Source of the DNA: a virus
Taxonomy: Duplodnaviria; Heunggongvirae; Uroviricota; Caudoviricetes
Strand: one strand, 5' to 3'
Virus record (IMG/VR): IMGVR_UViG_2558860274_000007
Length of the DNA stretch: 29,595 nt
This document shows, in pieces, positions 2,085 to 26,362 of this stretch. The notes beneath the pieces were generated by a model. It had not been told where the DNA came from and did not search any database. It saw nothing but the letters and a program-made list of their open reading frames with translations. The translations under genes were made by a program, and so were the position numbers. Every line of letters begins with the position of its first letter. The stretch's first letter is position 1.

Positions 2085-4532
2085 TTAACCGTCATGCATC
2101 ATGCTGGCACGGGCGCGCGCACGTTTATCCCGCTCGTATTTTTCGAGCGCATCCTGTAACTGGCGGTCAAGCTGTGTCCCCGGCGCAGTACCACCGGTCA
2201 GGCTGATGTGATATTCGTTTTTACTCTGGTCCACATAAGAGCGGCCAGCCGGTGCCGTGACCGGCTGATAAGCCTGATAGCCTGCATAAGAGCTGGTCGC
2301 CGGAATATAACCACCGGTGCCATACGTGGCGGCATTAGTCCTTGCGGCGGTCTGGTCAAGTGTGTCTGACTCTTTGTTGATGACACCGAGTTTTTCCAGT
2401 ACCCAGTCAATACCACTGCGCAGTTTGTTGAACGCATTAAGCGGCAGCATCAACGCGTCAGCCAGTGCCTGCCCGAACATGACACCCGTGTCACGGCAAC
2501 GGTTCAGGGTGTCCTGGGTGGCTTTGACCGGGGCAATCAGGTTTTTAAACCACTGCCACGCGGCCTGTAACTTTTCGCCCAGCCAGTCAAACACCGGCTT
2601 AAGTGGCGTGAACAGTTCCCCCACCGGCGCAAATGCCGCTTTCAGCCCTTCCACCACACCGCCAAAGAATGCGCTGACAGGCTCCCAGTATTTACGAATA
2701 AGCAACGCCCCGGCGACAATGGCGGCCACCACGGCAACAACCGGCCAGCTAATCGCCCCGATGGCCGTCATAACAGCACTGCCAACCGTCGTGAAGATTG
2801 CCCCCATTGCGCCTGCTGCCGCGATGATGGCATTGATGCCGGTGATAACCGGCCAGGCTACGAGGCCAATGGCACCGATGACGCCAGTCAGCGCCAGTGC
2901 GCCACCGACAATGAGGCCGATGGTTGACGCCAGTGATTTGTTTTTCTGGATCCAGCCGTCGAGTTTTAACACATACTTTGTGGCCGTCTGTGTGAGCTTA
3001 CGCAGTGCGCCTTCCTGCTGGTCAAACAGGTCAGTCCCCACCGCCTCATAAGCGGACTGAAACTCCTTAAAGTCACCGCCGAGGTTATCCTGCATGATTT
3101 TAACCAGCTCTTCCGTTTTACCGTCCGAGGCTTTCAGCGTGGCGGTCAGCGTATCCAGTTTTCCGCTTGCTGCCGCTGCCAGTAAAACGTTCGCTGATTT
3201 CAGGGCTTCCTCACCAAAAATGGTTTTAAGGTATTCCCCCTTCTGAGACGTTCCCAGCTTGTGTTTATCAAAGCTGGCCTGAATCTCTTTCAGAATGGTG
3301 AACAACGGGCGCATATTTCCCTTTTTGTCCGAGGTTTTAACGCCAAGCTCTTTGAGTGCATCCCATGCTTTCCCTGTCGGAGCCTGTAATCGGGTGACAA
3401 CGGCACTGCTACCCGTACCCGCCATTGACCCCCTGATGTTATTGTCATGCAGCACACCTGTCATGGCTGCTGCCTGCTCAAGACTTACACCTGCCGTCTT
3501 CGCAACCGGGCCGAGATAAGTCAGTGCATCACTGAGTCCCTGAAAATCAGCCGCCGACTTATTCATCGTTGCCGACAACACGTCGCCCACATGACTGACA
3601 TCATCATTTGACAGTTGAAAGGATGCCTTAGTCCCCAGCAACAGTTGCGCGTTTTCTTCCATCGACCGCTGATTCGCCAGTGCCATATTCAGCGTGACCG
3701 GCGTTGCCGCCTGAATAGCCGCAGCATCTCCACCGGCTTTCGCAATGATAATCTGTGCACCGGCTGCATCATCCGCCGAGGCGGCAGTATTGTCACCGAG
3801 CTGGCGCGCCTGCTTGCGGAGTGCGGCCATTTCGGCGGAGTCTTTTGCCACGCCGAGCACGGCCTGCAATTCTGAGTTTTTCTGCGCAAACTCATAACCG
3901 GGCATCAGCAACTTAACACCGGCCATCGTTCCCGCCGCCGCAATCCCCACACCGGCAGCGCCCACTGAGGCCATAGTTCCGGCCAGTTCCTTTCCGGCCT
4001 GATAACGCTGTTTTACTGCGTTAAGTTTTGCCTGTTGCGCACTGACACGCGCCAGCGCGTCACGCTGCCGGTTAAGCTGCGCGGTGGTTTCACTGATACG
4101 GTTTTTCAGCCCCTGCTCATCATGTGCAAGATTGCGGGTATTAATTCCCACAGCAGCCAGTTCCCGCTGCTGGCGTTTAACGGAATCCGTCAGGCGGTTA
4201 TATTTCGCCTGTAAGTCCTCCGCTGCTCGCTTTGCGGATTCCAGCACTTTCGCCTGAGCACGGGTCGGACGCTCGGTGTTTTTAAACTGTGTGGCAAGGG
4301 CTTCGGCCTCCTGCCGTGCCTTTTCAAGTGCATGACCAGTCACGGCGAGCTGTGCACTGGTCTTGCGGAATCCCTCAATACGGGATGCCTGACCGTTCAG
4401 CTCGCGCAGTGATTTTTGTGTTTCCCGGATATCCCCCGACAGCGACTTACTCGCTGTGCGGATGGATTTAAACGGGCGGGATGCCTGGTCAACAGCCCTG
4501 AGCAATACCTGTAATTTTACATTGTTACTCAT
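2085..4532 (-). CDS. T: Tail tape measure protein T, 815 aa
   Basis: 815-aa ORF (the P2 gpT length), coiled-coil-rich N-terminal half and Gly/Ala-rich hydrophobic middle; sits between E/E' and U as in P2. Confidence 0.92.
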   Translation of the reverse strand: MSNNVKLQVLLRAVDQASRPFKSIRTASKSLSGDIRETQKSLRELNGQASRIEGFRKTSAQLAVTGHALEKARQEAEALATQFKNTERPTRAQAKVLESAKRAAEDLQAKYNRLTDSVKRQQRELAAVGINTRNLAHDEQGLKNRISETTAQLNRQRDALARVSAQQAKLNAVKQRYQAGKELAGTMASVGAAGVGIAAAGTMAGVKLLMPGYEFAQKNSELQAVLGVAKDSAEMAALRKQARQLGDNTAASADDAAGAQIIIAKAGGDAAAIQAATPVTLNMALANQRSMEENAQLLLGTKASFQLSNDDVSHVGDVLSATMNKSAADFQGLSDALTYLGPVAKTAGVSLEQAAAMTGVLHDNNIRGSMAGTGSSAVVTRLQAPTGKAWDALKELGVKTSDKKGNMRPLFTILKEIQASFDKHKLGTSQKGEYLKTIFGEEALKSANVLLAAAASGKLDTLTATLKASDGKTEELVKIMQDNLGGDFKEFQSAYEAVGTDLFDQQEGALRKLTQTATKYVLKLDGWIQKNKSLASTIGLIVGGALALTGVIGAIGLVAWPVITGINAIIAAAGAMGAIFTTVGSAVMTAIGAISWPVVAVVAAIVAGALLIRKYWEPVSAFFGGVVEGLKAAFAPVGELFTPLKPVFDWLGEKLQAAWQWFKNLIAPVKATQDTLNRCRDTGVMFGQALADALMLPLNAFNKLRSGIDWVLEKLGVINKESDTLDQTAARTNAATYGTGGYIPATSSYAGYQAYQPVTAPAGRSYVDQSKNEYHISLTGGTAPGTQLDRQLQDALEKYERDKRARARASMMHDG

Positions 4533-4952
4533 TCGTGTTTCCGCTTCGCCGGAGCGCCTTTTCGCGCCATGTGATGAGTTCGGTCAGGCTCATGGGATAC
4601 AGTTCTGATGGCGGCCAGTGAAATATCACTGCCACATCTGCCATCAGGTCATCGACCGACAGATTTTTCGGAAACGTCACTGCACCGAGTTCGGCGACAA
4701 AAAACCGACCACCTTACCGGCCAGCGCCACAAGGTCAGGCAGTTCCAGCGCGGCGACCTCCTGCTCGGTCAGCATCGGTGCCGTCATGCGCGGCAGTACC
4801 TTAATCAGTGCATCGACTTCGGAGTTTGCAACCGCAGCCAGACTGACACCGCGCAGCGTCCCGGCATTGGGTTTCATCAGCGTGACCTGTTCGATAACCT
4901 GCTCACCACGCTTGACCGGATTGTCCAGGGTAATCACATTTTCTTTGTTCAT
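4525..4952 (-). CDS. E+E': E+E' tail assembly chaperone fusion made by programmed -1 frameshift, predicted 142 aa
   Basis: Slippery TTTTTTG on the minus strand at 4698-4704, six codons before the E stop. Reading in the -1 frame from there gives a 57-codon extension ending at TAA 4525-4527, which overlaps the T start codon. 85 + 57 = 142 aa, the size I recall for P2 E+E'. Confidence 0.7.
4677..4952 (-). CDS. E: Tail assembly chaperone E, 91 aa
   Basis: 91-aa ORF MNKENVITLDNPVKRGEQVIEQ... directly upstream of T, the P2 gpE position and size. Confidence 0.9.
   Translation of the reverse strand: MNKENVITLDNPVKRGEQVIEQVTLMKPNAGTLRGVSLAAVANSEVDALIKVLPRMTAPMLTEQEVAALELPDLVALAGKVVGFLSPNSVQ
4698..4704 (-). 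other. Slippery heptamer TTTTTTG for the E/E' -1 frameshift
   Basis: Read directly from the sequence; codons GGT TTT TTG of E (G-F-L) on the minus strand. Confidence 0.65.
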
Positions 4953-5008
4953 GGTTTTCTCACTTCTGAATCGGGGTTAACCGGTCAGCCAGGCTGACCG
5001 GATGAAAA

Positions 5009-5527
5009 TCACAGGCCGATATTGCGGCGGTGTTGCTCCAGCCGGTCGACGCCGTTCACCTTCTCAATCATGTTGATGGTGTCGATTTCGACCAGCTCCT
5101 TACCGTCCATCGTCAGCCGGAAATAGGTGCAGACCACGGAGATTTTCGACTCGGTGTCTTCTCCCTGTTTGCCCTCGCCGGTGTCGATTTCTTTCTGACG
5201 TCCACGCATGACCACTTCGACGGCCACCGTTTCGCCGGTATCGTCACGCTGGTAAGAGCCTGCAAAACGAATCGGCACAGCATCCACACCGGTTGCGGCG
5301 TAAAGCTCCCAGATAACCGAATCCGGGAAGCCACCGAGCGACCACTCCATTGACAGCGCATCGTCATCAAGGCCGAGGTCTACCGGTGCGCTGCCGTTCA
5401 TCCCCGCACCGCGATAGTTTTCGAGCTTACGGGTCAGTTTTGGCAGCGTGACGGACTTTGCAACGCCCTGATAGCTGTAGCCGTTCAGAAAGACGTTCAT
5501 TAACTTGAGTTTGCGCGGCATTGCCAT
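5009..5527 (-). CDS. FII: Tail tube protein FII, 172 aa
   Basis: 172-aa ORF immediately downstream of FI; size and position match P2 gpFII. Confidence 0.92.
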   Translation of the reverse strand: MAMPRKLKLMNVFLNGYSYQGVAKSVTLPKLTRKLENYRGAGMNGSAPVDLGLDDDALSMEWSLGGFPDSVIWELYAATGVDAVPIRFAGSYQRDDTGETVAVEVVMRGRQKEIDTGEGKQGEDTESKISVVCTYFRLTMDGKELVEIDTINMIEKVNGVDRLEQHRRNIGL

Positions 5528-16650: not shown

Positions 16651-18423
16651 ATGACCATCACCACAGACACCACTCTTTTACACGACCCGCGTCGTCAGGC
16701 GGCGCTGCTGTACTGGCAGGGGTTTTCCGTGCCGCAGATTGCCGCCATGTTGCAGATGAAACGCCCGACAGTGCAGAGCTGGAAACAGCGCGACGGCTGG
16801 GACAGCGTTGCCCCCATCAGCCGTGTCGAAATGAGTCTGGAAGCGCGGCTGACCCAGCTCATCATCAAACCGCAGAAAACCGGCGGTGATTTCAAGGAAA
16901 TTGACCTGCTGGGACGCCAGATTGAACGACTGGCACGGGTCAACCGTTACAGTCAGACCGGCAACGAGGCAGACCTTAATCCGAACGTCGCTAACCGCAA
17001 CAAAGGCGGGCGTCGCAAACCGAAAAAGAATTTTTTCAGTGACGAGGCCATCGAAAAGCTGGAGCAGATTTTCTTTGAGCAGTCTTTCGACTATCAGTTG
17101 CACTGGTATCGCGCCGGGCTTGAGCACCGCATCCGCGATATCCTGAAATCCCGCCAGATTGGTGCGACGTATTATTTTTCCCGCGAGGCGCTGCTGCACG
17201 CACTGAAAACCGGCCATAACCAGATTTTTCTGTCGGCCAGTAAAACGCAGGCGTATGTGTTCCGTGAATACATCATCGCCTTTGCCCGGCTGGTTGACGT
17301 TGACCTGACCGGTGACCCGATTGTCCTGGGCAATAACGGCGCAAAACTGATTTTTCTCGGCACCAACTCCAACACCGCGCAGAGCCATAACGGCGACCTG
17401 TACGTCGACGAGATTTTCTGGATCCCGAATTTTCAGGTACTGCGTAAGGTGGCATCAGGTATGGCCTCACAGAGTCACCTGCGTTCGACCTATTTCTCCA
17501 CCCCGTCCACGCTGGCGCACGACGCCTACCCGTTCTGGTCGGGTGAACTGTTTAACCGGGGACGCGCCAGCGCCGCTGAACGCGTGGAAATCGACGTCAG
17601 TCATAACGCACTTGCCGGAGGTCTTCTCTGTGCGGACGGCCAGTGGCGGCAGATTGTCACCATTGAGGACGCCCTGAAAGGCGGCTGCACGCTGTTCGAC
17701 ATTGAGCAGCTCAAACGCGAAAACAGCGCCGACGATTTTAAAAACCTGTTCATGTGTGAATTTGTTGACGACAAGGCGTCGGTGTTCCCGTTCGAGGAGT
17801 TGCAACGCTGCATGGTCGACACGCTGGAAGAATGGGAAGACTATGCGCCGTTTGCCGCCAATCCGTTCGGCTCACGCCCGGTCTGGATTGGTTACGACCC
17901 GTCACACCGTGGCGACAGCGCCGGATGCGTGGTGCTGGCACCGCCGGTGGTTGCCGGTGGCAAATTCAGAATACTTGAGCGTCACCAGTGGAAAGGCATG
18001 GACTTTGCCACCCAGGCGGAATCCATCCGCAAACTCACCGAAAAATACAACGTCGAATACATCGGTATTGATGCCACCGGCCTCGGTGTCGGCGTGTTCC
18101 AGCTCGTGCGCTCGTTCTATCCTGCCGCGCGCGACATCCGCTACACGCCGGAAATGAAAACCGCAATGGTGCTTAAGGCAAAAGACGTTATCCGCCGTGG
18201 CTGTCTGGAATACGACGTCAGCGCCACCGACATCACCAGCTCGTTTATGGCTATCCGCAAGACCATGACCAGCAGCGGACGCAGCGCCACCTATGAGGCC
18301 AGCCGCAGCGAGGAAGCCAGCCACGCCGACCTCGCCTGGGCGACCATGCACGCCCTGTTAAATGAGCCACTCACCGCCGGTATCAGCACCCCGCTGACAT
18401 CCACCATTCTGGAGTTTTACTGA
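16651..18423 (+). CDS. P: Terminase large (ATPase/nuclease) subunit P, 590 aa
   Basis: Start at the ATG for MTITTDTTLLHDPRRQAALLYWQG, with GAGG 4-5 nt upstream. 590 aa as in P2 gpP. Stop overlaps the Q start (TGATG). Confidence 0.93.
   Translation: MTITTDTTLLHDPRRQAALLYWQGFSVPQIAAMLQMKRPTVQSWKQRDGWDSVAPISRVEMSLEARLTQLIIKPQKTGGDFKEIDLLGRQIERLARVNRYSQTGNEADLNPNVANRNKGGRRKPKKNFFSDEAIEKLEQIFFEQSFDYQLHWYRAGLEHRIRDILKSRQIGATYYFSREALLHALKTGHNQIFLSASKTQAYVFREYIIAFARLVDVDLTGDPIVLGNNGAKLIFLGTNSNTAQSHNGDLYVDEIFWIPNFQVLRKVASGMASQSHLRSTYFSTPSTLAHDAYPFWSGELFNRGRASAAERVEIDVSHNALAGGLLCADGQWRQIVTIEDALKGGCTLFDIEQLKRENSADDFKNLFMCEFVDDKASVFPFEELQRCMVDTLEEWEDYAPFAANPFGSRPVWIGYDPSHRGDSAGCVVLAPPVVAGGKFRILERHQWKGMDFATQAESIRKLTEKYNVEYIGIDATGLGVGVFQLVRSFYPAARDIRYTPEMKTAMVLKAKDVIRRGCLEYDVSATDITSSFMAIRKTMTSSGRSATYEASRSEEASHADLAWATMHALLNEPLTAGISTPLTSTILEFY
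18153..18284. repeat. Parent copy, inside P, of the segment duplicated at 1490-1619
   Basis: Near-identical to 1490-1619 over about 130 bp, same orientation. Confidence 0.8.
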
Positions 18424-19645: not shown

Positions 19646-19872
19646 CGCCCGCTTCATGGGTCGGTTTTGATGCAATTCCAAAAGCCGTCCAAACTCTCTT
19701 AGGCTAAATGTCCAACGAGAAAATAGTGCTTTGAATGTGAATGCATTTTAATGCAGAGTTATGCCCAGCATTTTTGTACACTTCGATGTATCAAATGCGC
19801 TGCAAACGATCAAATATGGATGTTTTATCAAGCATCCCCCAAAAGATATTTACATCATCCCATGAGGTTAAG

Positions 19873-20946
19873 ATGGATAACAAAATCGTAGAAATTGAGA
19901 CAAATAAGCTTGATTTTGACCCTAAAAACCCACGTTTCTTTCGTCTCAATGATGCCAGTAACGCTGCAACAGTCATTGAGGAAATGTTAGATGACGAAAG
20001 TGTCCACGATCTAATGCTATCAATCGGTCAGCAAGGTTACTTTCCTGGAGAACCTTTATTGGCAGTAAAAAGCAATGGAAACTACATCGTGGTTGAGGGA
20101 AACAGACGCTTAGCTGCTGTAAAGTTGCTCAATGGAGATCTGCTTCCTCCAAAAAGAAAACTTAAAGGTGTGCAAGAAATCATTGATGATACTACCAATA
20201 AACCTAAGAAGCTTCCCTGCATCATTTATGAAAACCGAGAGGATGTACTGAGATATATCGGTTATCGTCATATAACTGGGGTCAAAGAATGGGACTCATT
20301 ATCTAAAGCCAAATACCTTAAAGAGTTATGTGATACTTTTTATTCACATGAACCTAAAGAGATAGTATTAAAAAATCTGGCTCGTGAGATTGGGAGTAAA
20401 CCACATTATGTTGCAACACTTCTCACTGCACTGAACTTATATGAAGTCGCGCATGACCATGAGTTTTTTAATTTACCCATGAAGGCTTCTGACGTGGAAT
20501 TTTCATATATAACCACAGCTTTGGGATATTCAAAAATCACAAACTGGTTAGGTCTACAGGATAAAAAGGATTTTTTAGACCCAAATTTAAATGAAGAAAA
20601 CCTTAAGCGTTTATTCTCTTGGTTTTTTGTGCCTGACCAACAAGGTAGAACCATCATCGGTGAGTCTCGAAGAATAAAAGATATTGCAGCAGTGGTTGAG
20701 AAACCCGAAGCAATTGAAATTCTCATGAAAAGTTCAAACTTGGATGAAGCATATCTATATACCAGCGGAGAAAGAGAAGCATTAGATAAAGCACTAAACG
20801 CAGCTAGTGTTAAATTAAGAGTAGTTTGGGATATGCTACTTAAAGCTAAAGAATTAACATTAGAGCATGAAGAGGCTGCATCTGAAATTTTTGAGATGTC
20901 AAAAAATATTAGAAATCAGATCAGAAGCAAAAGGGAGGATGATTGA
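19873..20946 (+). CDS. ParB-like (ParB/Srx-fold N-terminal domain) protein, 357 aa; first gene of the cargo cassette after cos
   Basis: Start chosen at the ATG for MDNKIVEIE, with GAGG 5 nt upstream. ParB-like motifs DFDPKNPRF and YIVVEGNRRLAAVKLL. AT-rich. The track ORF starts 44 codons earlier with no ribosome-binding site. Confidence 0.72.
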   Translation: MDNKIVEIETNKLDFDPKNPRFFRLNDASNAATVIEEMLDDESVHDLMLSIGQQGYFPGEPLLAVKSNGNYIVVEGNRRLAAVKLLNGDLLPPKRKLKGVQEIIDDTTNKPKKLPCIIYENREDVLRYIGYRHITGVKEWDSLSKAKYLKELCDTFYSHEPKEIVLKNLAREIGSKPHYVATLLTALNLYEVAHDHEFFNLPMKASDVEFSYITTALGYSKITNWLGLQDKKDFLDPNLNEENLKRLFSWFFVPDQQGRTIIGESRRIKDIAAVVEKPEAIEILMKSSNLDEAYLYTSGEREALDKALNAASVKLRVVWDMLLKAKELTLEHEEAASEIFEMSKNIRNQIRSKREDD

Positions 20947-20950
20947 GATT

Positions 20951-21976
20951 ATGATTACAAATCTTGATTCAATGCCTTCTAATGAGCCTTATTTATGGGC
21001 TGATTATATTGAGATATTGGCCTTAACTAATATCGACAGGTCATTCAGTCGAGGAGACCTATATAGCACACTGCAAGCTCAACCCGAAGCAGTACTAGCT
21101 GAAACAGATGAAGCAGAAGAAGAGGGCGTTTATGATGTTGATGATGAAAATGATACGCCTGTACGCAAGAGAACAAAACGAAGTGTTAGTCGAGCATATA
21201 CTGACAGAAAGTGGAGCTATGCGATAGGCTTCATACGACAACGCATTGATTTATTTGGGGATAGTTACCCTTTTACTTTATCAGAAGACAACGATACTGT
21301 AGAGTTACGTGATATATCAGAAAAGCCACTGGAACATTTAGAAAGACTATATTTAGCTTTACTAATCTGTGCTAACATAAAATATGTCAACATAATGAGC
21401 AGAAGAGAGATAACGCGCAGTTTTGAACTAATTAGTTTACCTATTTTTGAAAGCCTAATGCCTAGCGGTAGCATAATAAAAGCATGCTGGGCTTCTGGTG
21501 GTCAAGCGGCCCCTTACACTGGAACTCTATATAATAAATTTAAGAGTATTGCTTCCGATATCCGTTGCACAGCGAACTTCAAAGAACGAGATTTCAGTCG
21601 AGGAAATAGTGGTGACGGAGGCCTTGACATAATTGCCTGGCATCCAATGGGAGATCAACGAGATGCCATCCCTATTTCTTTTGTTCAGTGTGGCTGTTCT
21701 CAAGAAGAGTGGGAAGCGAAGCAGCTTGAGGCCTCACCTGCGATGCTCTACAGTAAATTCCCCGTAGCTCACCGATGGGCAACTTATTATTTCTTACCTC
21801 AAGATCTACGATGGATAGATGGTGAGTGGGCACATAAAAATAAGTTAGGCGATGCTATTTTTGTTGATCGCCTAAGATTAATCAATTTAACCAGAGCATC
21901 TGATAATATTGATCACAGTCAAAATATTAGCTATCTAGATATCATCCTTGATCCTTCCAGCGCGATCGCTGCTTAG
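20951..21976 (+). CDS. Hypothetical ~340-aa protein with a putative Mrr-like / PD-(D/E)xK nuclease motif; second gene of the cassette
   Basis: C-terminal half contains GNSGDGGLDIIAW...ISFVQCG, which resembles the Mrr catalytic signature (GDGG-I/L-D ... QxK) but lacks the Lys. Acidic low-complexity N-terminal region. AAGGGAGG ribosome-binding site upstream; the start could be the ATG at 20939 or 20951. Overlaps the gene 1 stop. Confidence 0.65.
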   Translation: MITNLDSMPSNEPYLWADYIEILALTNIDRSFSRGDLYSTLQAQPEAVLAETDEAEEEGVYDVDDENDTPVRKRTKRSVSRAYTDRKWSYAIGFIRQRIDLFGDSYPFTLSEDNDTVELRDISEKPLEHLERLYLALLICANIKYVNIMSRREITRSFELISLPIFESLMPSGSIIKACWASGGQAAPYTGTLYNKFKSIASDIRCTANFKERDFSRGNSGDGGLDIIAWHPMGDQRDAIPISFVQCGCSQEEWEAKQLEASPAMLYSKFPVAHRWATYYFLPQDLRWIDGEWAHKNKLGDAIFVDRLRLINLTRASDNIDHSQNISYLDIILDPSSAIAA

Positions 21977-22911
21977 TCCCATAAATCTGGAAGGTTTCTA
22001 GCAACCGCCTCAAACAATGGAGGCGGTACTGCATTACCTACCACAGTATATTTCATATTAATAGAAGCCCGTTCAGTTTCTGGGAAAATTAAATCTCCAA
22101 AACCTTGTAAAATAGCAGCCTCTCGATAGCTAAACCTACGAGCTGGTGCATCCGAAGTAAATTGCCACTTATCAGGTCCCAATTTTTCTAATGTTGGACT
22201 TATTGGATGTAGAGGCATATGTCTAGGATTTGCAACAATTGTTTTAGATATCTGATCCCAATCTTGCCTACGGTTTCGCGATAGATAATACCAATGAAAA
22301 TCGGCGTCATAAAACTCGCCAACAGGCCAAACAGGCATATGCCCAATAGCATCACGAATTGTGGAATATGGTGTCAAACCATCACCATGTGTTGGTTTTG
22401 GAAATTTGTATGTAATACCGTAGTCCTTTCGTATTCCTACGATAAAGATTCGCTTCCTATCTTGGGATACCCCATAATGGGACGCATTCAGAATTTGCGA
22501 GCTTACTGTATAACCTGCTTCTTCGAAAACTTTGAATTGATCCTTTAATAAATGCTCAAAGTTACGCCTTACCATACCAGAGACATTCTCTACAATGAAT
22601 GCTTTTGGCTTAATTTTACTCAAAGCACGGGCAAACTCTAAATATAGTGTATTAATCTTTCTATCTGCCTTCCTTGCCCCACCTTGACTAAATCCTTGGC
22701 AAGGATAGCATCCGATGAGCAACTCAGCAGAAGGGAACGACTGGAGCCCTGAGATATCGCCCAAAATGTAGTCAGTTTCAGGATGGTTTTCTAAGTAAAC
22801 GTCCCTTGCGTAAGGCAAAATATCATTTGCCATAAGCACATTGAAACCTGCGTTCAAAACTCCCGCATCAGAACCACCACATCCAGAAAAAAGTGAAACT
22901 ACAGTTGGCAT
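21973..22911 (-). CDS. DNA (cytosine-5)-methyltransferase, 312 aa, convergent with the two-gene operon
   Basis: Canonical C5-MTase motifs in order: motif I FSGCGG, motif IV PCQGFS, motif VI ENV, motif VIII QDRKR, and C-terminal GNAVPP. Perfect AGGAGG ribosome-binding site 5 nt upstream. Its 3' end overlaps the gene 2 stop by about 4 nt. Confidence 0.9.
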   Translation of the reverse strand: MPTVVSLFSGCGGSDAGVLNAGFNVLMANDILPYARDVYLENHPETDYILGDISGLQSFPSAELLIGCYPCQGFSQGGARKADRKINTLYLEFARALSKIKPKAFIVENVSGMVRRNFEHLLKDQFKVFEEAGYTVSSQILNASHYGVSQDRKRIFIVGIRKDYGITYKFPKPTHGDGLTPYSTIRDAIGHMPVWPVGEFYDADFHWYYLSRNRRQDWDQISKTIVANPRHMPLHPISPTLEKLGPDKWQFTSDAPARRFSYREAAILQGFGDLIFPETERASINMKYTVVGNAVPPPLFEAVARNLPDLWD

Positions 22912-23153
22912 TGACCCCTCCTAAAAACCGACCGCGTATTATAGCGAAACACCCCGTTGGGAAAAGCTAGATTTTGCCAAGTCTTGATATTCTCACGTTT
23001 TAGTAGTTGTGGCCATCTTTAACGAGAAAAAGATAAAATTGACTTCTCATTAATTTTCAATAGGTTTAATTGTAAGCTCAAACTAACGCCTCGCGACACT
23101 CGTTATTCAACCCCGCCAGCCCTGAAAACAAGTTTCACGACTGGCGGCGTTCT

Positions 23154-23360
23154 CTATCGTCTGCGTTGTGGTGGCGCAACTCTGGACTGACCGATATGGT
23201 TAAACCGCCCGTAATTATCCCGGACTATTTCGGCACACCCGACCAGCTCATCGGGCGTCAGATTTTCGTTGACCATAATCCGCTGTAAACGCTGAACAAT
23301 AGCCATCAGCTTGATATTTTTAGTTTTATGGTGCGGTATCTCGCCTGGTATTCTGTGCAT
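23154..23360 (-). CDS. Hypothetical small protein, 68 aa, translationally coupled to the upstream gene
   Basis: ATG for MHRIPGEIPHHKTK overlaps the stop of the upstream gene (TAATG). No recognisable domain. Confidence 0.5.
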   Translation of the reverse strand: MHRIPGEIPHHKTKNIKLMAIVQRLQRIMVNENLTPDELVGCAEIVRDNYGRFNHIGQSRVAPPQRRR

Positions 23361-23812
23361 TATCCAAGCCACCCGTTTTGCTGTGCACGCTCCATCTGTT
23401 CATCTGAATAGTTCCATGCTCCATCCGTGGCAACCATTGCCCCGCCAGACATCCCCGTCTCTGGTTCATACATAACAGCAAGGCCGAGCTGATGCATAAT
23501 TTCATGATTAATTCTGAATACCAAGCCACGCTCACTAAGTTCTTTCCAGTTCACAATCTCATATACGCCTGTATTAAGCAGCTCAATACTTAGCAAGACA
23601 TAATCTTCCAGCCAGTCTGACAGGTCAGTAACATCTGTTATCCGGGCTTCAACCTTTCGCCCCGTAAACACACCCTGTACCCATTCATGCAAAATCAACG
23701 TGTCCCCGCGCTCATAATTACGGTCATTTTTCCGAAACTCTGCGCGTTTCTTTCCTTCCAGCACAAGGTCGAAATATTTTGCGTGCAGCTTTACCTCGTG
23801 AATTTTTGCCAT
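23360..23812 (-). CDS. Hypothetical protein with an N-terminal ASCH/DUF3850-like region and a C-terminal HExxH motif (possible metallopeptidase), about 150 aa
   Basis: MAKIHEVKLHAKYFDLVLEGKKRAEFRKNDRNYERGDTLILHEW is ASCH-like; HEIMHQLG is an HExxH motif. Start overlaps the A stop (ATGA); an alternative start is one codon upstream. Confidence 0.65.
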   Translation of the reverse strand: MAKIHEVKLHAKYFDLVLEGKKRAEFRKNDRNYERGDTLILHEWVQGVFTGRKVEARITDVTDLSDWLEDYVLLSIELLNTGVYEIVNWKELSERGLVFRINHEIMHQLGLAVMYEPETGMSGGAMVATDGAWNYSDEQMERAQQNGWLG

Positions 23813-26097
23813 CATGTCCACTCCATTACTGTTGAGAATCCCGGCCACTCATCAGCGACTGGATACGTGAATTTTTTCCCGTCATAATTTACGGTCGCGC
23901 CACGCGCCAGCGCCTCAAGCTCCCATCGCTGCGGCCTGATACCGTTCTGAGCGAGGTCAACGCGGATACGGGTAATTTGCATTCGTTCCGACCGGGTCAG
24001 TCTGGCCGACGGTGCAATTTCATGTGTTTTTAACGGGCTTCCGTTTCTCTGCTGACGATTTGGTGTTCTCAGCCCGTGTTTTAATGCGCCCCTGAGCGCC
24101 CTCACGACCTCCGGGTCATTCCATTCGATAACACCGTCATCAACCAGATTAAGCACTGCTGCGGCGTGCTCAGAAGGCGTGGGAGCCGGTAACGAATTAT
24201 CACTGCTGGCAGGCTTTCCACAGTTATTGACAGGACTCCGAGGCGCGGCGATGCCGCTTTTTAAAGTCAAAGGCTCAACGACCGGCACTTTCGGAACAAT
24301 GCGCCAGTCCGTCGTTCTGGTGATATGAATATGACGCGCGCCGAGATGCGGCGCGTAAATGCCGACCACTCTCTCGACTTCTTCCTCGTACTCGTTAACG
24401 TCATCCGACGGGCTACGGGCAACCCTGACAGTCTGACAATCGCGCGGGACATTTGCCCCGCCCTGCGCGCTGATATACAACGCAAAATCACCACTGTCTG
24501 CGGCGGCGCGTGCAGCCTCGACGCGTTCGTCAAACTCATCAGCAATGCTGACGCCGCGAGGCAATTTGCGTAGCTCACGGTAAGCCCCCATTGTCGGCAG
24601 GCCAACCGTTTTAAATTGCGGAATGCGCCACGTTGACGCCCATGCGGTAACAGCCGCGGCAGTATCTTTCAGCGGCCTGCCAGTATCGTTATCGAGCTGA
24701 CCATCCAGTGCATAGCCGTCGATGTTTTTTGAGATGTATTTCGCGATATATCCCGCAGCACCGCCCCGGTTAAGGTGTGTTGCCTGAAAACGGTTTCGCG
24801 CAGCGCCTCTTTCGTCACCATCCTCTTTGAGCGCATAGCGACGCATGATTTCGATAATCTGGTTACGCTGGCGTGGATTACAAAAAAGCATCATATGCCA
24901 GTGCGGCGTTCCGTCGTGGTGTGGCTCGACGACACGCAAACCGTAGACCTGTAAATCATTATCCTTGAATGCCGTGCGCATCAGGCTCCAGATACGGCAG
25001 AGATAACGCTGCGCATCCTTTGGATTAAATGCCTCATCGTTCCAGCCGTGATTAAGCTGAACGGTTTTACTTTCGCCTTTTCCGACCTGACGTGTCGGGT
25101 GATACTTTGACGGCGCGGTCAGCGTGATAAACATCCCCACATCACCCTCTGCGGCGGCGTAACGCTCAATACCGGCAATGGTGTTCATCAGCTCCATCCG
25201 GCGAATTTCAGGATTAGAAATACTGCCCATCACCTTACTGATAAGGTCGATACGCTCGCCGGTTTCCCTGTTTTCAAGGTCACACGATTTAAGAAATTCC
25301 AGATTTGCCTGGCGGCGCGCACGCACATCACGAATGGCATGTTTACTGGCATAAGGAGAACGGTCTTTATTGACCTCCCCGACAGCTATCAGTAACGCTT
25401 CATGCCAGCGCATACGCTGGCCTTTAAGCTGATGAGTCCACCACTCATCGTTAAACAGGCGGGCAATGGCAGAATATGCCTGCCTCGTGATCATCTGCCC
25501 TTTACGGTATTTTTTCCAGTAAAGCGGGGAAATATTGAAAGCACATGCAGCGCCAGCAACATGACCATACAGATGTGCCTGCGCCTCATCCGTAAACAGC
25601 GATTCTTTTTCGCCATGCGCATCCACCCAGGCATCGCAGAGTTCCTCATACATCATGAAAAGCTGCGATGAGATTCGGGCGGCAAACTTTTTCAGCTCCT
25701 TGTCATTCATCCCCGGCAGGCGCGCATACTGGTCGCGCTCTGCCAGAAACAGCAACGACGCGTCGGTGTTCATTTCATGGCGCTGATTCACACGCTCAAT
25801 GCGCGGCCATAAACGACGCTGAAAAGTGGATGTGAGGAAATAAAACCCGTGCACCGGGCTTTTATTGCGCCGGATGTAGTCATAGCGTGAAGTAAACAGC
25901 GAGCGCAAAAAGTAAGGCAGGCGGTTAATCGTGGATAAAACACCTTGCACCTGACGCATCTCGTCACGTGTAAGGGGTCTTTCGCGCCCGACAGCCTCGC
26001 GTGGCGCGTTCCATGCATAAGCACCGGTAAACGCCTTACCGGTGCCTGCGGCAAATGCTGACGGAGGGACAAAACGCCCGGAGGCTTTAACGGCCAT
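23812..26097 (-). CDS. A: Replication initiation protein A (rolling-circle nickase), 761 aa
   Basis: Start at the ATG for MAVKASGRFVPPSAFAAGTGKAF, giving the P2 gpA length of 761 aa. The track ORF extends 17 codons upstream. Confidence 0.93.
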   Translation of the reverse strand: MAVKASGRFVPPSAFAAGTGKAFTGAYAWNAPREAVGRERPLTRDEMRQVQGVLSTINRLPYFLRSLFTSRYDYIRRNKSPVHGFYFLTSTFQRRLWPRIERVNQRHEMNTDASLLFLAERDQYARLPGMNDKELKKFAARISSQLFMMYEELCDAWVDAHGEKESLFTDEAQAHLYGHVAGAACAFNISPLYWKKYRKGQMITRQAYSAIARLFNDEWWTHQLKGQRMRWHEALLIAVGEVNKDRSPYASKHAIRDVRARRQANLEFLKSCDLENRETGERIDLISKVMGSISNPEIRRMELMNTIAGIERYAAAEGDVGMFITLTAPSKYHPTRQVGKGESKTVQLNHGWNDEAFNPKDAQRYLCRIWSLMRTAFKDNDLQVYGLRVVEPHHDGTPHWHMMLFCNPRQRNQIIEIMRRYALKEDGDERGAARNRFQATHLNRGGAAGYIAKYISKNIDGYALDGQLDNDTGRPLKDTAAAVTAWASTWRIPQFKTVGLPTMGAYRELRKLPRGVSIADEFDERVEAARAAADSGDFALYISAQGGANVPRDCQTVRVARSPSDDVNEYEEEVERVVGIYAPHLGARHIHITRTTDWRIVPKVPVVEPLTLKSGIAAPRSPVNNCGKPASSDNSLPAPTPSEHAAAVLNLVDDGVIEWNDPEVVRALRGALKHGLRTPNRQQRNGSPLKTHEIAPSARLTRSERMQITRIRVDLAQNGIRPQRWELEALARGATVNYDGKKFTYPVADEWPGFSTVMEWT

Positions 26098-26362
26098 ATG
26101 AGCCAAAAGCCTCTGAACAACGCCTGCTGAGTTGCTCAACCTGTGCATTTAAATCAGCAAAAGACTTTGCGCTTCCGGTCAGAATATCGTGATGCATCAG
26201 GCCGGAAACGAGCTGGCTTAATTTCGGGTAATAACCAACCACTGCCAGCCATTCCTGACCGGCGTTTTTACCGCTTTCCGCTCTCTTTTTCTCGTGGAGA
26301 ATAAACTGAAAGCTGTCACTGGTAACGACATAACGTTCGCCAATTTCAATACGAATACTCAC
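26087..26362 (-). CDS. Hypothetical early protein (P2 orf83-equivalent position), 91 aa
   Basis: ORF begins with GTG overlapping the stop of the TraR-like gene (GTGA). Start is uncertain. Confidence 0.5.
   Translation of the reverse strand: MSIRIEIGERYVVTSDSFQFILHEKKRAESGKNAGQEWLAVVGYYPKLSQLVSGLMHHDILTGSAKSFADLNAQVEQLSRRCSEAFGSYGR

Follow-up and report, generated by a model that had tools for sequence, protein, structure and literature searches.

What do the two small genes directly downstream of the replication gene A contribute to a P2-type phage? We addressed this question in a 29,595-nucleotide (nt) stretch of a tailed phage (Caudoviricetes; IMG/VR record IMGVR_UViG_2558860274_000007), referred to below as the window, in which two overlapping open reading frames (ORFs), ORF1 and ORF2, follow gene A on the minus strand. 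An initial annotation had described the first as a protein of about 150 amino acids (aa) that combines an ASCH/DUF3850-like N-terminal region with an HEIMHQLG (HExxH) motif, and had suggested a small metallopeptidase. We give roughly an even chance to a different reading, in which the pair would assist phage DNA replication or nucleotide metabolism as an accessory factor that is dispensable and non-proteolytic. Both genes are already known and annotated, as members of uncharacterised Pfam and PHROG families. The features of the locus are as follows.

23360–23815, minus strand: ORF1, the 151-aa orf91 orthologue with ASCH/DUF3850 and DUF7415 domains (evidence from Pfam, PHROG, RefSeq, AlphaFold2 and dN/dS).
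23579–23815, minus strand: ASCH/DUF3850 PUA-like beta-barrel of ORF1 (residues 1–79), with the GxKxxExR octapeptide at G21–R28.
23363–23548, minus strand: DUF7415 mini-domain of ORF1 (residues 90–151; PF24187, E=1.8e-14), helix-helix-strand-strand-helix in the model.
23492–23506, minus strand: HEIMH (residues 104–108) within the DUF7415 helix 98–110; E105 and H108 are conserved in the family, H104 is not.
23154–23360, minus strand: ORF2, 68 aa, a predicted helical hairpin (helices 10–31 and 36–59; evidence from homologues, alignment and AlphaFold2).
23812–26148, minus strand: gene A, replication initiator (Phage_GPA), labelled 'replication endonuclease' in RefSeq; its TGA (23812–23814) overlaps the ORF1 start.
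23109–23151, minus strand: GC-rich hairpin without a U-tract (RNA folding).

ORF1 starts at an ATG (23813–23815) that lies 8 nt downstream from a GGAG and forms an ATGA overlap with the TGA of gene A (ACATGATGG); the encoded protein begins MMAKIHEV and ends at a TAA (23360–23362). The ATG of ORF2 (23358–23360) has one base in common with this TAA, in a TAATG overlap (GGATAATGCAC), and its product begins MHRIPGE, with the frame ending at 23154. The location next to A and the coupling of a 68-aa frame through TAATG were therefore described correctly at the outset. Upstream GTG starts offered by an ORF finder are not used by homologues: Relatives of ORF1 begin MMAKIHEV or MSKIHD, and those of ORF2 begin MH. 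Comparison with the Enterobacter and Klebsiella prophage orthologues gave proportions of 0.68–0.94 for synonymous differences (pS) and 0.15–0.33 for nonsynonymous differences (pN), with a dN/dS of ∼0.15 and saturated synonymous sites. ORF1 matched PHROG 1812 over its full length (E=4e-82), and ORF2 matched PHROG 11386 (E=2e-38). We conclude that both are real genes under purifying selection. The 801 bases at the locus are 100% identical to the chromosome of Escherichia coli W and to at least 12 other E. coli genomes, and the DNA identity to phage Wphi is 99.1%. RefSeq names ORF1 a "DUF3850 (or ASCH) domain-containing protein", with the DUF3850 label in E. coli W, and ORF2 a "hypothetical protein". 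The longest frame of gene A runs for 778 aa from the first ATG; the annotations of P2, Wphi, and L-413C give 761 aa (2286 nt), and translation probably begins at the downstream start.

The proposed ASCH/DUF3850-like region of ORF1 held up in both sequence and structure searches. Pfam DUF3850 covers residues 5–77 (E=1e-17; 64.5 bits, gathering cut-off 22.9), with an overlapping ASCH match (E=1.5e-10; 42.1 bits, cut-off 21.2), and a second domain, DUF7415, covers residues 87–129 (E=1.8e-14; 54.1 bits, cut-off 27). An AlphaFold2 model built from 109 sequences (mean predicted local distance difference test score [pLDDT] 85.8) consists of a beta-barrel (residues 1–79) of the kind expected of an ASCH domain, a low-confidence linker (80–89), and a helix-helix-strand-strand-helix unit (90–146). 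Structure searches with the whole model returned ASCH, PUA, and YTH folds only; the ASCH domain dominates such searches, so the fold of DUF7415 is not separable in them. The GxKxxExR octapeptide is a conserved mark of the ASCH family, and ORF1 fits it with G21-K22-K23-R24-A25-E26-F27-R28. The version found in the amidohydrolase YqfB is given in PMC9599836. The residues that are invariant across the DUF7415 family (G97, L98, N103, E105, H108, G111, A113, and S123) are all present in ORF1. NCBIfam returned no match for ORF1 or ORF2; PADLOC, which holds models of defence and not of anti-defence, returned a 12.6-bit noise match for ORF1 and none for ORF2.

The HEIMHQLG motif does lie where a ∼150-aa protein with this motif had been described, at residues 104–111 of the 151, but it is inside DUF7415, in the modelled alpha-helix 98–110. 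When the last 72 residues of ORF1 were used as the query, an exhaustive HMMER search recovered 197 clusters at E≤1e-3, of which 146 representatives were aligned. The column of H104 most often holds R (56 representatives), followed by K (25), T (18), and H and N (12 each); the column of E105 is E in 119/146 and that of H108 is H in 140/146. The family consensus at the motif reads R-I-N-[RK]-E-I-L-H-P-L-G, as part of the signature W-N-x-L-S-x-x-G-L-x-x-R-I-N-x-E-I-L-H-P-L-G-L-A...G-x-S-x-G-A-L-V-x-x-D-G-x-W-E-Y. In place of HEIMH, a Klebsiella-type P2-like protein at the same genomic position reads YEVLH, and P0043, a related cluster representative of 123 aa, reads YEVLL. Open frames of ≥100 aa in the window total 14,751 aa and contain HExxH twice (the other instance being HELEHADT at ∼18094–18108, minus strand); the motif also turns up in 1.4% of shuffles of the ORF1 composition. 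No metallopeptidase appeared in structure or sequence searches with ORF1, and a profile search against PDB sequences was empty; the combination expected of a zincin, with HExxH conserved as a metal site, a mixed beta-sheet, an active-site helix, and a third ligand, was not found. Judged by its alignment, HExxH in ORF1 is a lineage-specific coincidence, and E105, H108, N103, S123, and D131 may form a functional surface of another kind.

Equivalence to orf91 of P2 had also been proposed, and here the reference allele turned out to be the atypical one. P2 Orf91 (NP_046796, 109 aa) and ORF1 share 99% identity over residues 1–75, and both genes lie directly 3' of A and overlap it; past residue 75, however, P2 Orf91 continues into a 34-aa tail without DUF7415. 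This tail is unrelated, as DNA homology stops where the tin/old cassette starts; in P2 (NC_001895, 4317–4646), Orf91 is a chimera, with the recombination junction of the cassette inside the gene. Reference P2 also lacks ORF2. In L-413C, orf91 (150 aa) is 91% identical to ORF1 over its full length and again overlaps A at its 3' side, but ORF2 is absent, unlike in the window. The shared ATGA overlap and the level of identity identify ORF1 as the full-length orthologue of P2 orf91, and we take the two-domain gene to be the common form and ancestral state, and the P2 allele to be a truncated, ASCH-only chimera. The supposition that homology might be limited to P2 orf91, with no additional domain, was thus right about orf91 and wrong about the domain.

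Wphi has the same locus and is of the same phage type as the window, yet its 2002 record (AY135739, 3455–4262) contains seven extra single bases relative to window positions 23100–23900. They break the reading frame, and the gene is annotated as gp91 (93 aa) and gp92 (64 aa), the latter frame-shifted and made of the DUF7415 part and the start of ORF2. The extra bases are most likely sequencing errors, which would make gp91 and gp92 artefacts of a 151-aa gene plus the ORF2 start. Comparisons that take either P2 Orf91 or Wphi gp91/gp92 as the reference will therefore mislead. A stand-alone relative of the N-terminal part is a structural-genomics target from Enterococcus faecalis (PDB 3iuw), a single-domain DUF3850/ASCH protein of 83 aa without DUF7415. 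Precomputed Pfam lists also contain seemingly new architectures such as 'Cox+DUF7415' and 'DUF3850+tail-protein'; we rejected these as deletion chimeras of decayed P2-like prophages, in which fragments of Cox, tail, or baseplate genes are joined to parts of orf91 (P0010, P0014, P0017, P0018, P0032, P0035, P0038, and P0040). A literature search for orf91 returned unrelated papers alone among the 15 best-ranked of 96 matches.

We then asked whether the pair belongs to the phage backbone or to the variable cargo that P2-like phages carry beyond A. An Enterobacter prophage has A, a DUF7415 protein, and an ORF2 homologue in this order (ORF1 53% and ORF2 57% identical), followed by cargo genes of 86 and 222 aa. 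Klebsiella-type prophages have the same order and keep DUF7415 and ORF2 (71% identical), with the ASCH domain replaced by an unrelated N-terminal region of ∼60 aa and a single 85-aa gene as cargo. The order is also kept in Yersinia phage vB_YpM_50, where the cargo is one 197-aa gene, and in phages with the mth/gp96/gp98-type cargo of the window. The pair is thus retained beside at least four different cargos. Hotspot cargo is variable, has its own promoter, and matches defence models; the pair, in contrast, is kept, is coupled to A, and has no meaningful PADLOC match. Because the order of A, DUF7415 protein, and ORF2 is maintained beside different cargos, we assign the pair to the backbone, at the end of the early operon and ahead of the variable cargo, and not to cargo of the tin/old type. 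The left edge of the A–Q defence hotspot lies after ORF2, at times inside orf91, and not straight after A; the orf91 gene is not discussed in the A–Q hotspot papers. Among 5,426 complete E. coli genomes searched at megablast sensitivity, the 3' end of this A type was found in 1,398, the ASCH part in 380, the DUF7415 part in 350, and ORF2 in 371, so that about one-quarter of the genomes with this A type carry the same ORF1–ORF2 allele.

The GC content steps down along the locus, from 0.54 in A to 0.46 in ORF1, 0.49 in ORF2, and 0.37–0.41 in the cargo. A hairpin begins 3 nt past the ORF2 stop (fold of 23070–23165, minus strand: −37.1 kcal/mol, z=−3.45 relative to shuffles) and may mark where the early operon or transcript ends, or else the boundary of the cargo. 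A terminator scan found no canonical intrinsic terminator after ORF2 and did not pick up this hairpin, and an Rfam scan of the window returned no RNA family. The hotspot cargo past ORF2 (19741–22911) comprises mth, a C5 cytosine methyltransferase that is DruM2-like in PADLOC; gp96 (369 aa, no family); and gp98 (401 aa), which has a ParB_N-like N-terminus and PADLOC matches to PD-Lambda-5_A (E ∼1e-24) and PDC-M38A. The trio, which is also present in other Peduovirus records, looks like a methyltransferase-linked defence module.

ORF2 has 179 homologues (E≤0.01) in a collection of 5.8 billion proteins. The 120 of these that were listed are 50–83 aa long, most of them 67–79 aa, and every one with a named organism comes from Enterobacterales. 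A near-invariant core (K17–Y50, KLMAIVxRLQxIMVNENLTPxELVGCAEIVRDNY) is followed by a variable tail rich in Pro and Arg, and the AlphaFold2 model is a helical hairpin (helices 10–31 and 36–59) with a core pLDDT of >90. Searches of ORF2 gave no Pfam, NCBIfam, or PADLOC family, no PDB sequence match, and no fold match. Within a phage collection, it was found in 34 records, all Peduoviridae (of Escherichia, Salmonella, and Yersinia) and including PSP3 gp37. The gene is systematically missed in annotation, as in RefSeq NC_070904 (∼3512–3715) and NC_055846 (2738–2938). In every locus examined, from three enterobacterial P2-like lineages, an ORF2 homologue directly follows the DUF7415 gene; the small ORFs after DUF7415 in an Aeromonas prophage and in a plasmid-like contig of Enterobacter show no recognisable relationship to ORF2. 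Because ORF2 remains beside DUF7415 where another region has replaced the ASCH domain, and because it is better conserved than the ASCH part of ORF1, DUF7415 is its probable partner.

DUF7415 itself is far more widely distributed, and was found in 822 phage genomes. Most of the 146 representatives are stand-alone ORFs of 60–100 aa; fusions include the dATP/dGTP pyrophosphohydrolase PF04447 (three representatives), DUF3850 (two), thymidylate kinase, an Rv2179c-like 3'-5' exoribonuclease, DUF551, PGDYG, and a ClpX-type zinc finger. The DUF7415 proteins of T4-like, T5-like, and other phages have the same W-N-x-L-S...R-I-N-x-E-I-L-H-P-L-G-L-A...G-x-S-x-G...D-G-x-W-x-Y pattern as ORF1. They differ in that fusion to DUF3850 is rare (two of 146 clusters) and in that residues 104, 109, and 116 are H, Q, and Y in the P2-like lineage but R/K, P, and R in the family. 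The neighbours of DUF7415 are often genes of nucleotide metabolism or replication. It lies between nrdD and nrdG in Klebsiella Jiaodavirus (T4-like), beside nudE in RB43, next to rnlA, denA, and td in Aeh1, and just ahead of dam and A in a 186-like Pantoea prophage. In T5-like phages, a protein with tandem DUF7415 domains lies between nrdD and the primase gene; an example is the 131-aa bas30_0049 of TrudiRoth (3827–4222), with two domains, between the anaerobic ribonucleotide reductase and primase genes. Aeromonas P2-like prophages have the order A, a 166-aa gene, DUF7415 (81 aa), a 76-aa gene, DUF3850 (158 aa), and ogr, and in an Aeromonas salmonicida prophage (locus 3498–5269) the DUF7415 gene is distinct from that for DUF3850 and lies two positions away from it. 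Because the two domains are fused in ORF1 and separate neighbours in Aeromonas, a classical sign of functional linkage, they may well act together.

We propose that ORF1 and ORF2 would be expressed with A from the early promoter, as the tail of the replication operon of a Wphi/P2-type prophage, with translational coupling from A to ORF1 through the ATGA overlap and from ORF1 to ORF2 through TAATG. The ASCH/DUF3850 PUA-like barrel would supply binding of nucleic acid or of a (modified) nucleotide, which we infer because of the properties of the PUA/ASCH superfamily and because ParB-DUF3850 fusions bind cytidine triphosphate, albeit via the ParB fold (10.1101/2025.10.10.680097). ORF2 would be a partner of ORF1, and DUF7415, a portable, phage-specific module of ∼55 residues, would, perhaps together with ORF2, dock onto a common nucleotide or replication target and so take part in deoxynucleoside triphosphate (dNTP) metabolism or replication.

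Several observations weigh against this proposal. Reference P2 does without DUF7415 and ORF2, and L-413C does without ORF2, for which reason we regard the pair as dispensable on laboratory hosts. A Pseudomonas P2-like prophage has DUF7415 among late genes, between L and X, and DUF7415 is not mentioned in the literature searched. The link to nucleotides consists of five fusion clusters among the 146 representatives together with early-region neighbourhoods that are crowded with small ORFs anyway. Finally, because E105, H108, S123, and N103 are near-invariant and D131 is conserved in most members, DUF7415 might be a small enzyme or a metal or ligand site, not a docking module.

A more specific version of the proposal, which we offer tentatively and think rather improbable as it stands, makes DUF7415 a small module of phage nucleotide metabolism, which would sense nucleotides or phosphate, or would inhibit, or serve as an adaptor for, a host enzyme of the dNTP pool or of replication. 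Such a module may use a conserved exposed face formed by R101-[R/K]104-E105-H108 plus R116, S123, and D131; it may have ORF2 as a dedicated helical partner and be joined, in different phages, to ASCH, a MazZ-like dNTP pyrophosphohydrolase, thymidylate kinase, or an exoribonuclease.

Among the alternatives to the accessory-factor reading, a role in counter-defence survives best, although we hold it to be unlikely. ORF1, with or without ORF2, would be an early anti-defence factor, which might keep the dNTP pool intact or replenish it, inhibit a host defence enzyme that degrades nucleotides or senses modifications, or mask a nucleic-acid feature with the PUA-like barrel. The early-operon position with translational coupling, the dispensability of the pair in P2 and L-413C, and its place at the edge of the A–Q defence hotspot (PMC9122126) are all consistent with such a function. 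PUA-superfamily domains, including ASCH, serve as sensors of modified bases (PMC12191111); the ASCH-like BapA is a 5-hydroxymethylcytosine glycosylase; and DUF7415 has dNTP-pool enzymes as fusion partners and is widespread in early regions of T4-like and T5-like lytic phages. Yet neither protein resembles known anti-defence proteins, and the PADLOC scan, with its defence models, gave no meaningful match; moreover, the pair is conserved, not hypervariable, down to a single allele in a quarter of the E. coli genomes with this A type.

It is much less probable that ORF1 is an N4-acyl-cytosine amidohydrolase of the YqfB type, acting in pyrimidine salvage. YqfB is likewise an ASCH barrel, whose catalytic residues are the base Lys21, the nucleophile Thr24, and the acid Glu74, together with Arg26 (PMC9599836). 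The aligned residues of ORF1 are K23, E26, E70, and R28, respectively, in the order Lys21, Thr24, Glu74, and Arg26, and the partners of DUF7415 do have a nucleotide-metabolism flavour. The Lys, Arg, and Glu are thus present, but the nucleophile is replaced by Glu in ORF1 and by Leu in the Enterobacter orthologue, and identity to YqfB is ∼10%–22%. We rejected this candidate because the nucleophile Thr is missing.

We think slightly less still of a toxin–antitoxin or lysogenic-conversion (exclusion) pair in the manner of tin/old: Two small overlapping genes at a location where P2 carries exclusion genes would fit, but the pair is co-oriented with and coupled to A, whereas tin/old is convergent with its own promoter, ORF1 occurs without ORF2 in viable L-413C and its ASCH part occurs alone in P2, no toxin–antitoxin or defence model matched in Pfam, NCBIfam, or PADLOC, and the pair is kept beside several different cargos. 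Least probable of all is the small zinc metallopeptidase first suggested, in which HEIMH would bind Zn and ORF1 would hydrolyse peptides: HEIMHQLG is present and alpha-helical as in zincins, E105 and H108 are conserved, and position 119 is acidic in 97/146 representatives, but we reject a zincin because the first His is rarely conserved, relatives have YEVLH or YEVLL, no metallopeptidase or zincin fold was matched, and the motif arises by chance at an appreciable rate, and at ∼55 residues DUF7415 is below the size of a zincin fold.

By itself, the finding of this gene pair behind A is ordinary and matters little; the sole lead worth following is DUF7415, seen as a module common among phages and tied to nucleotide metabolism. 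Should DUF7415 prove to be such a module, the orf91–ORF2 pair would be a new early device for counter-defence or for control of the dNTP pool. The association of DUF7415 with dNTP-metabolism genes, DUF3850, and ORF2 may thus serve as a starting hypothesis for a domain that is present in more than 800 phage genomes.

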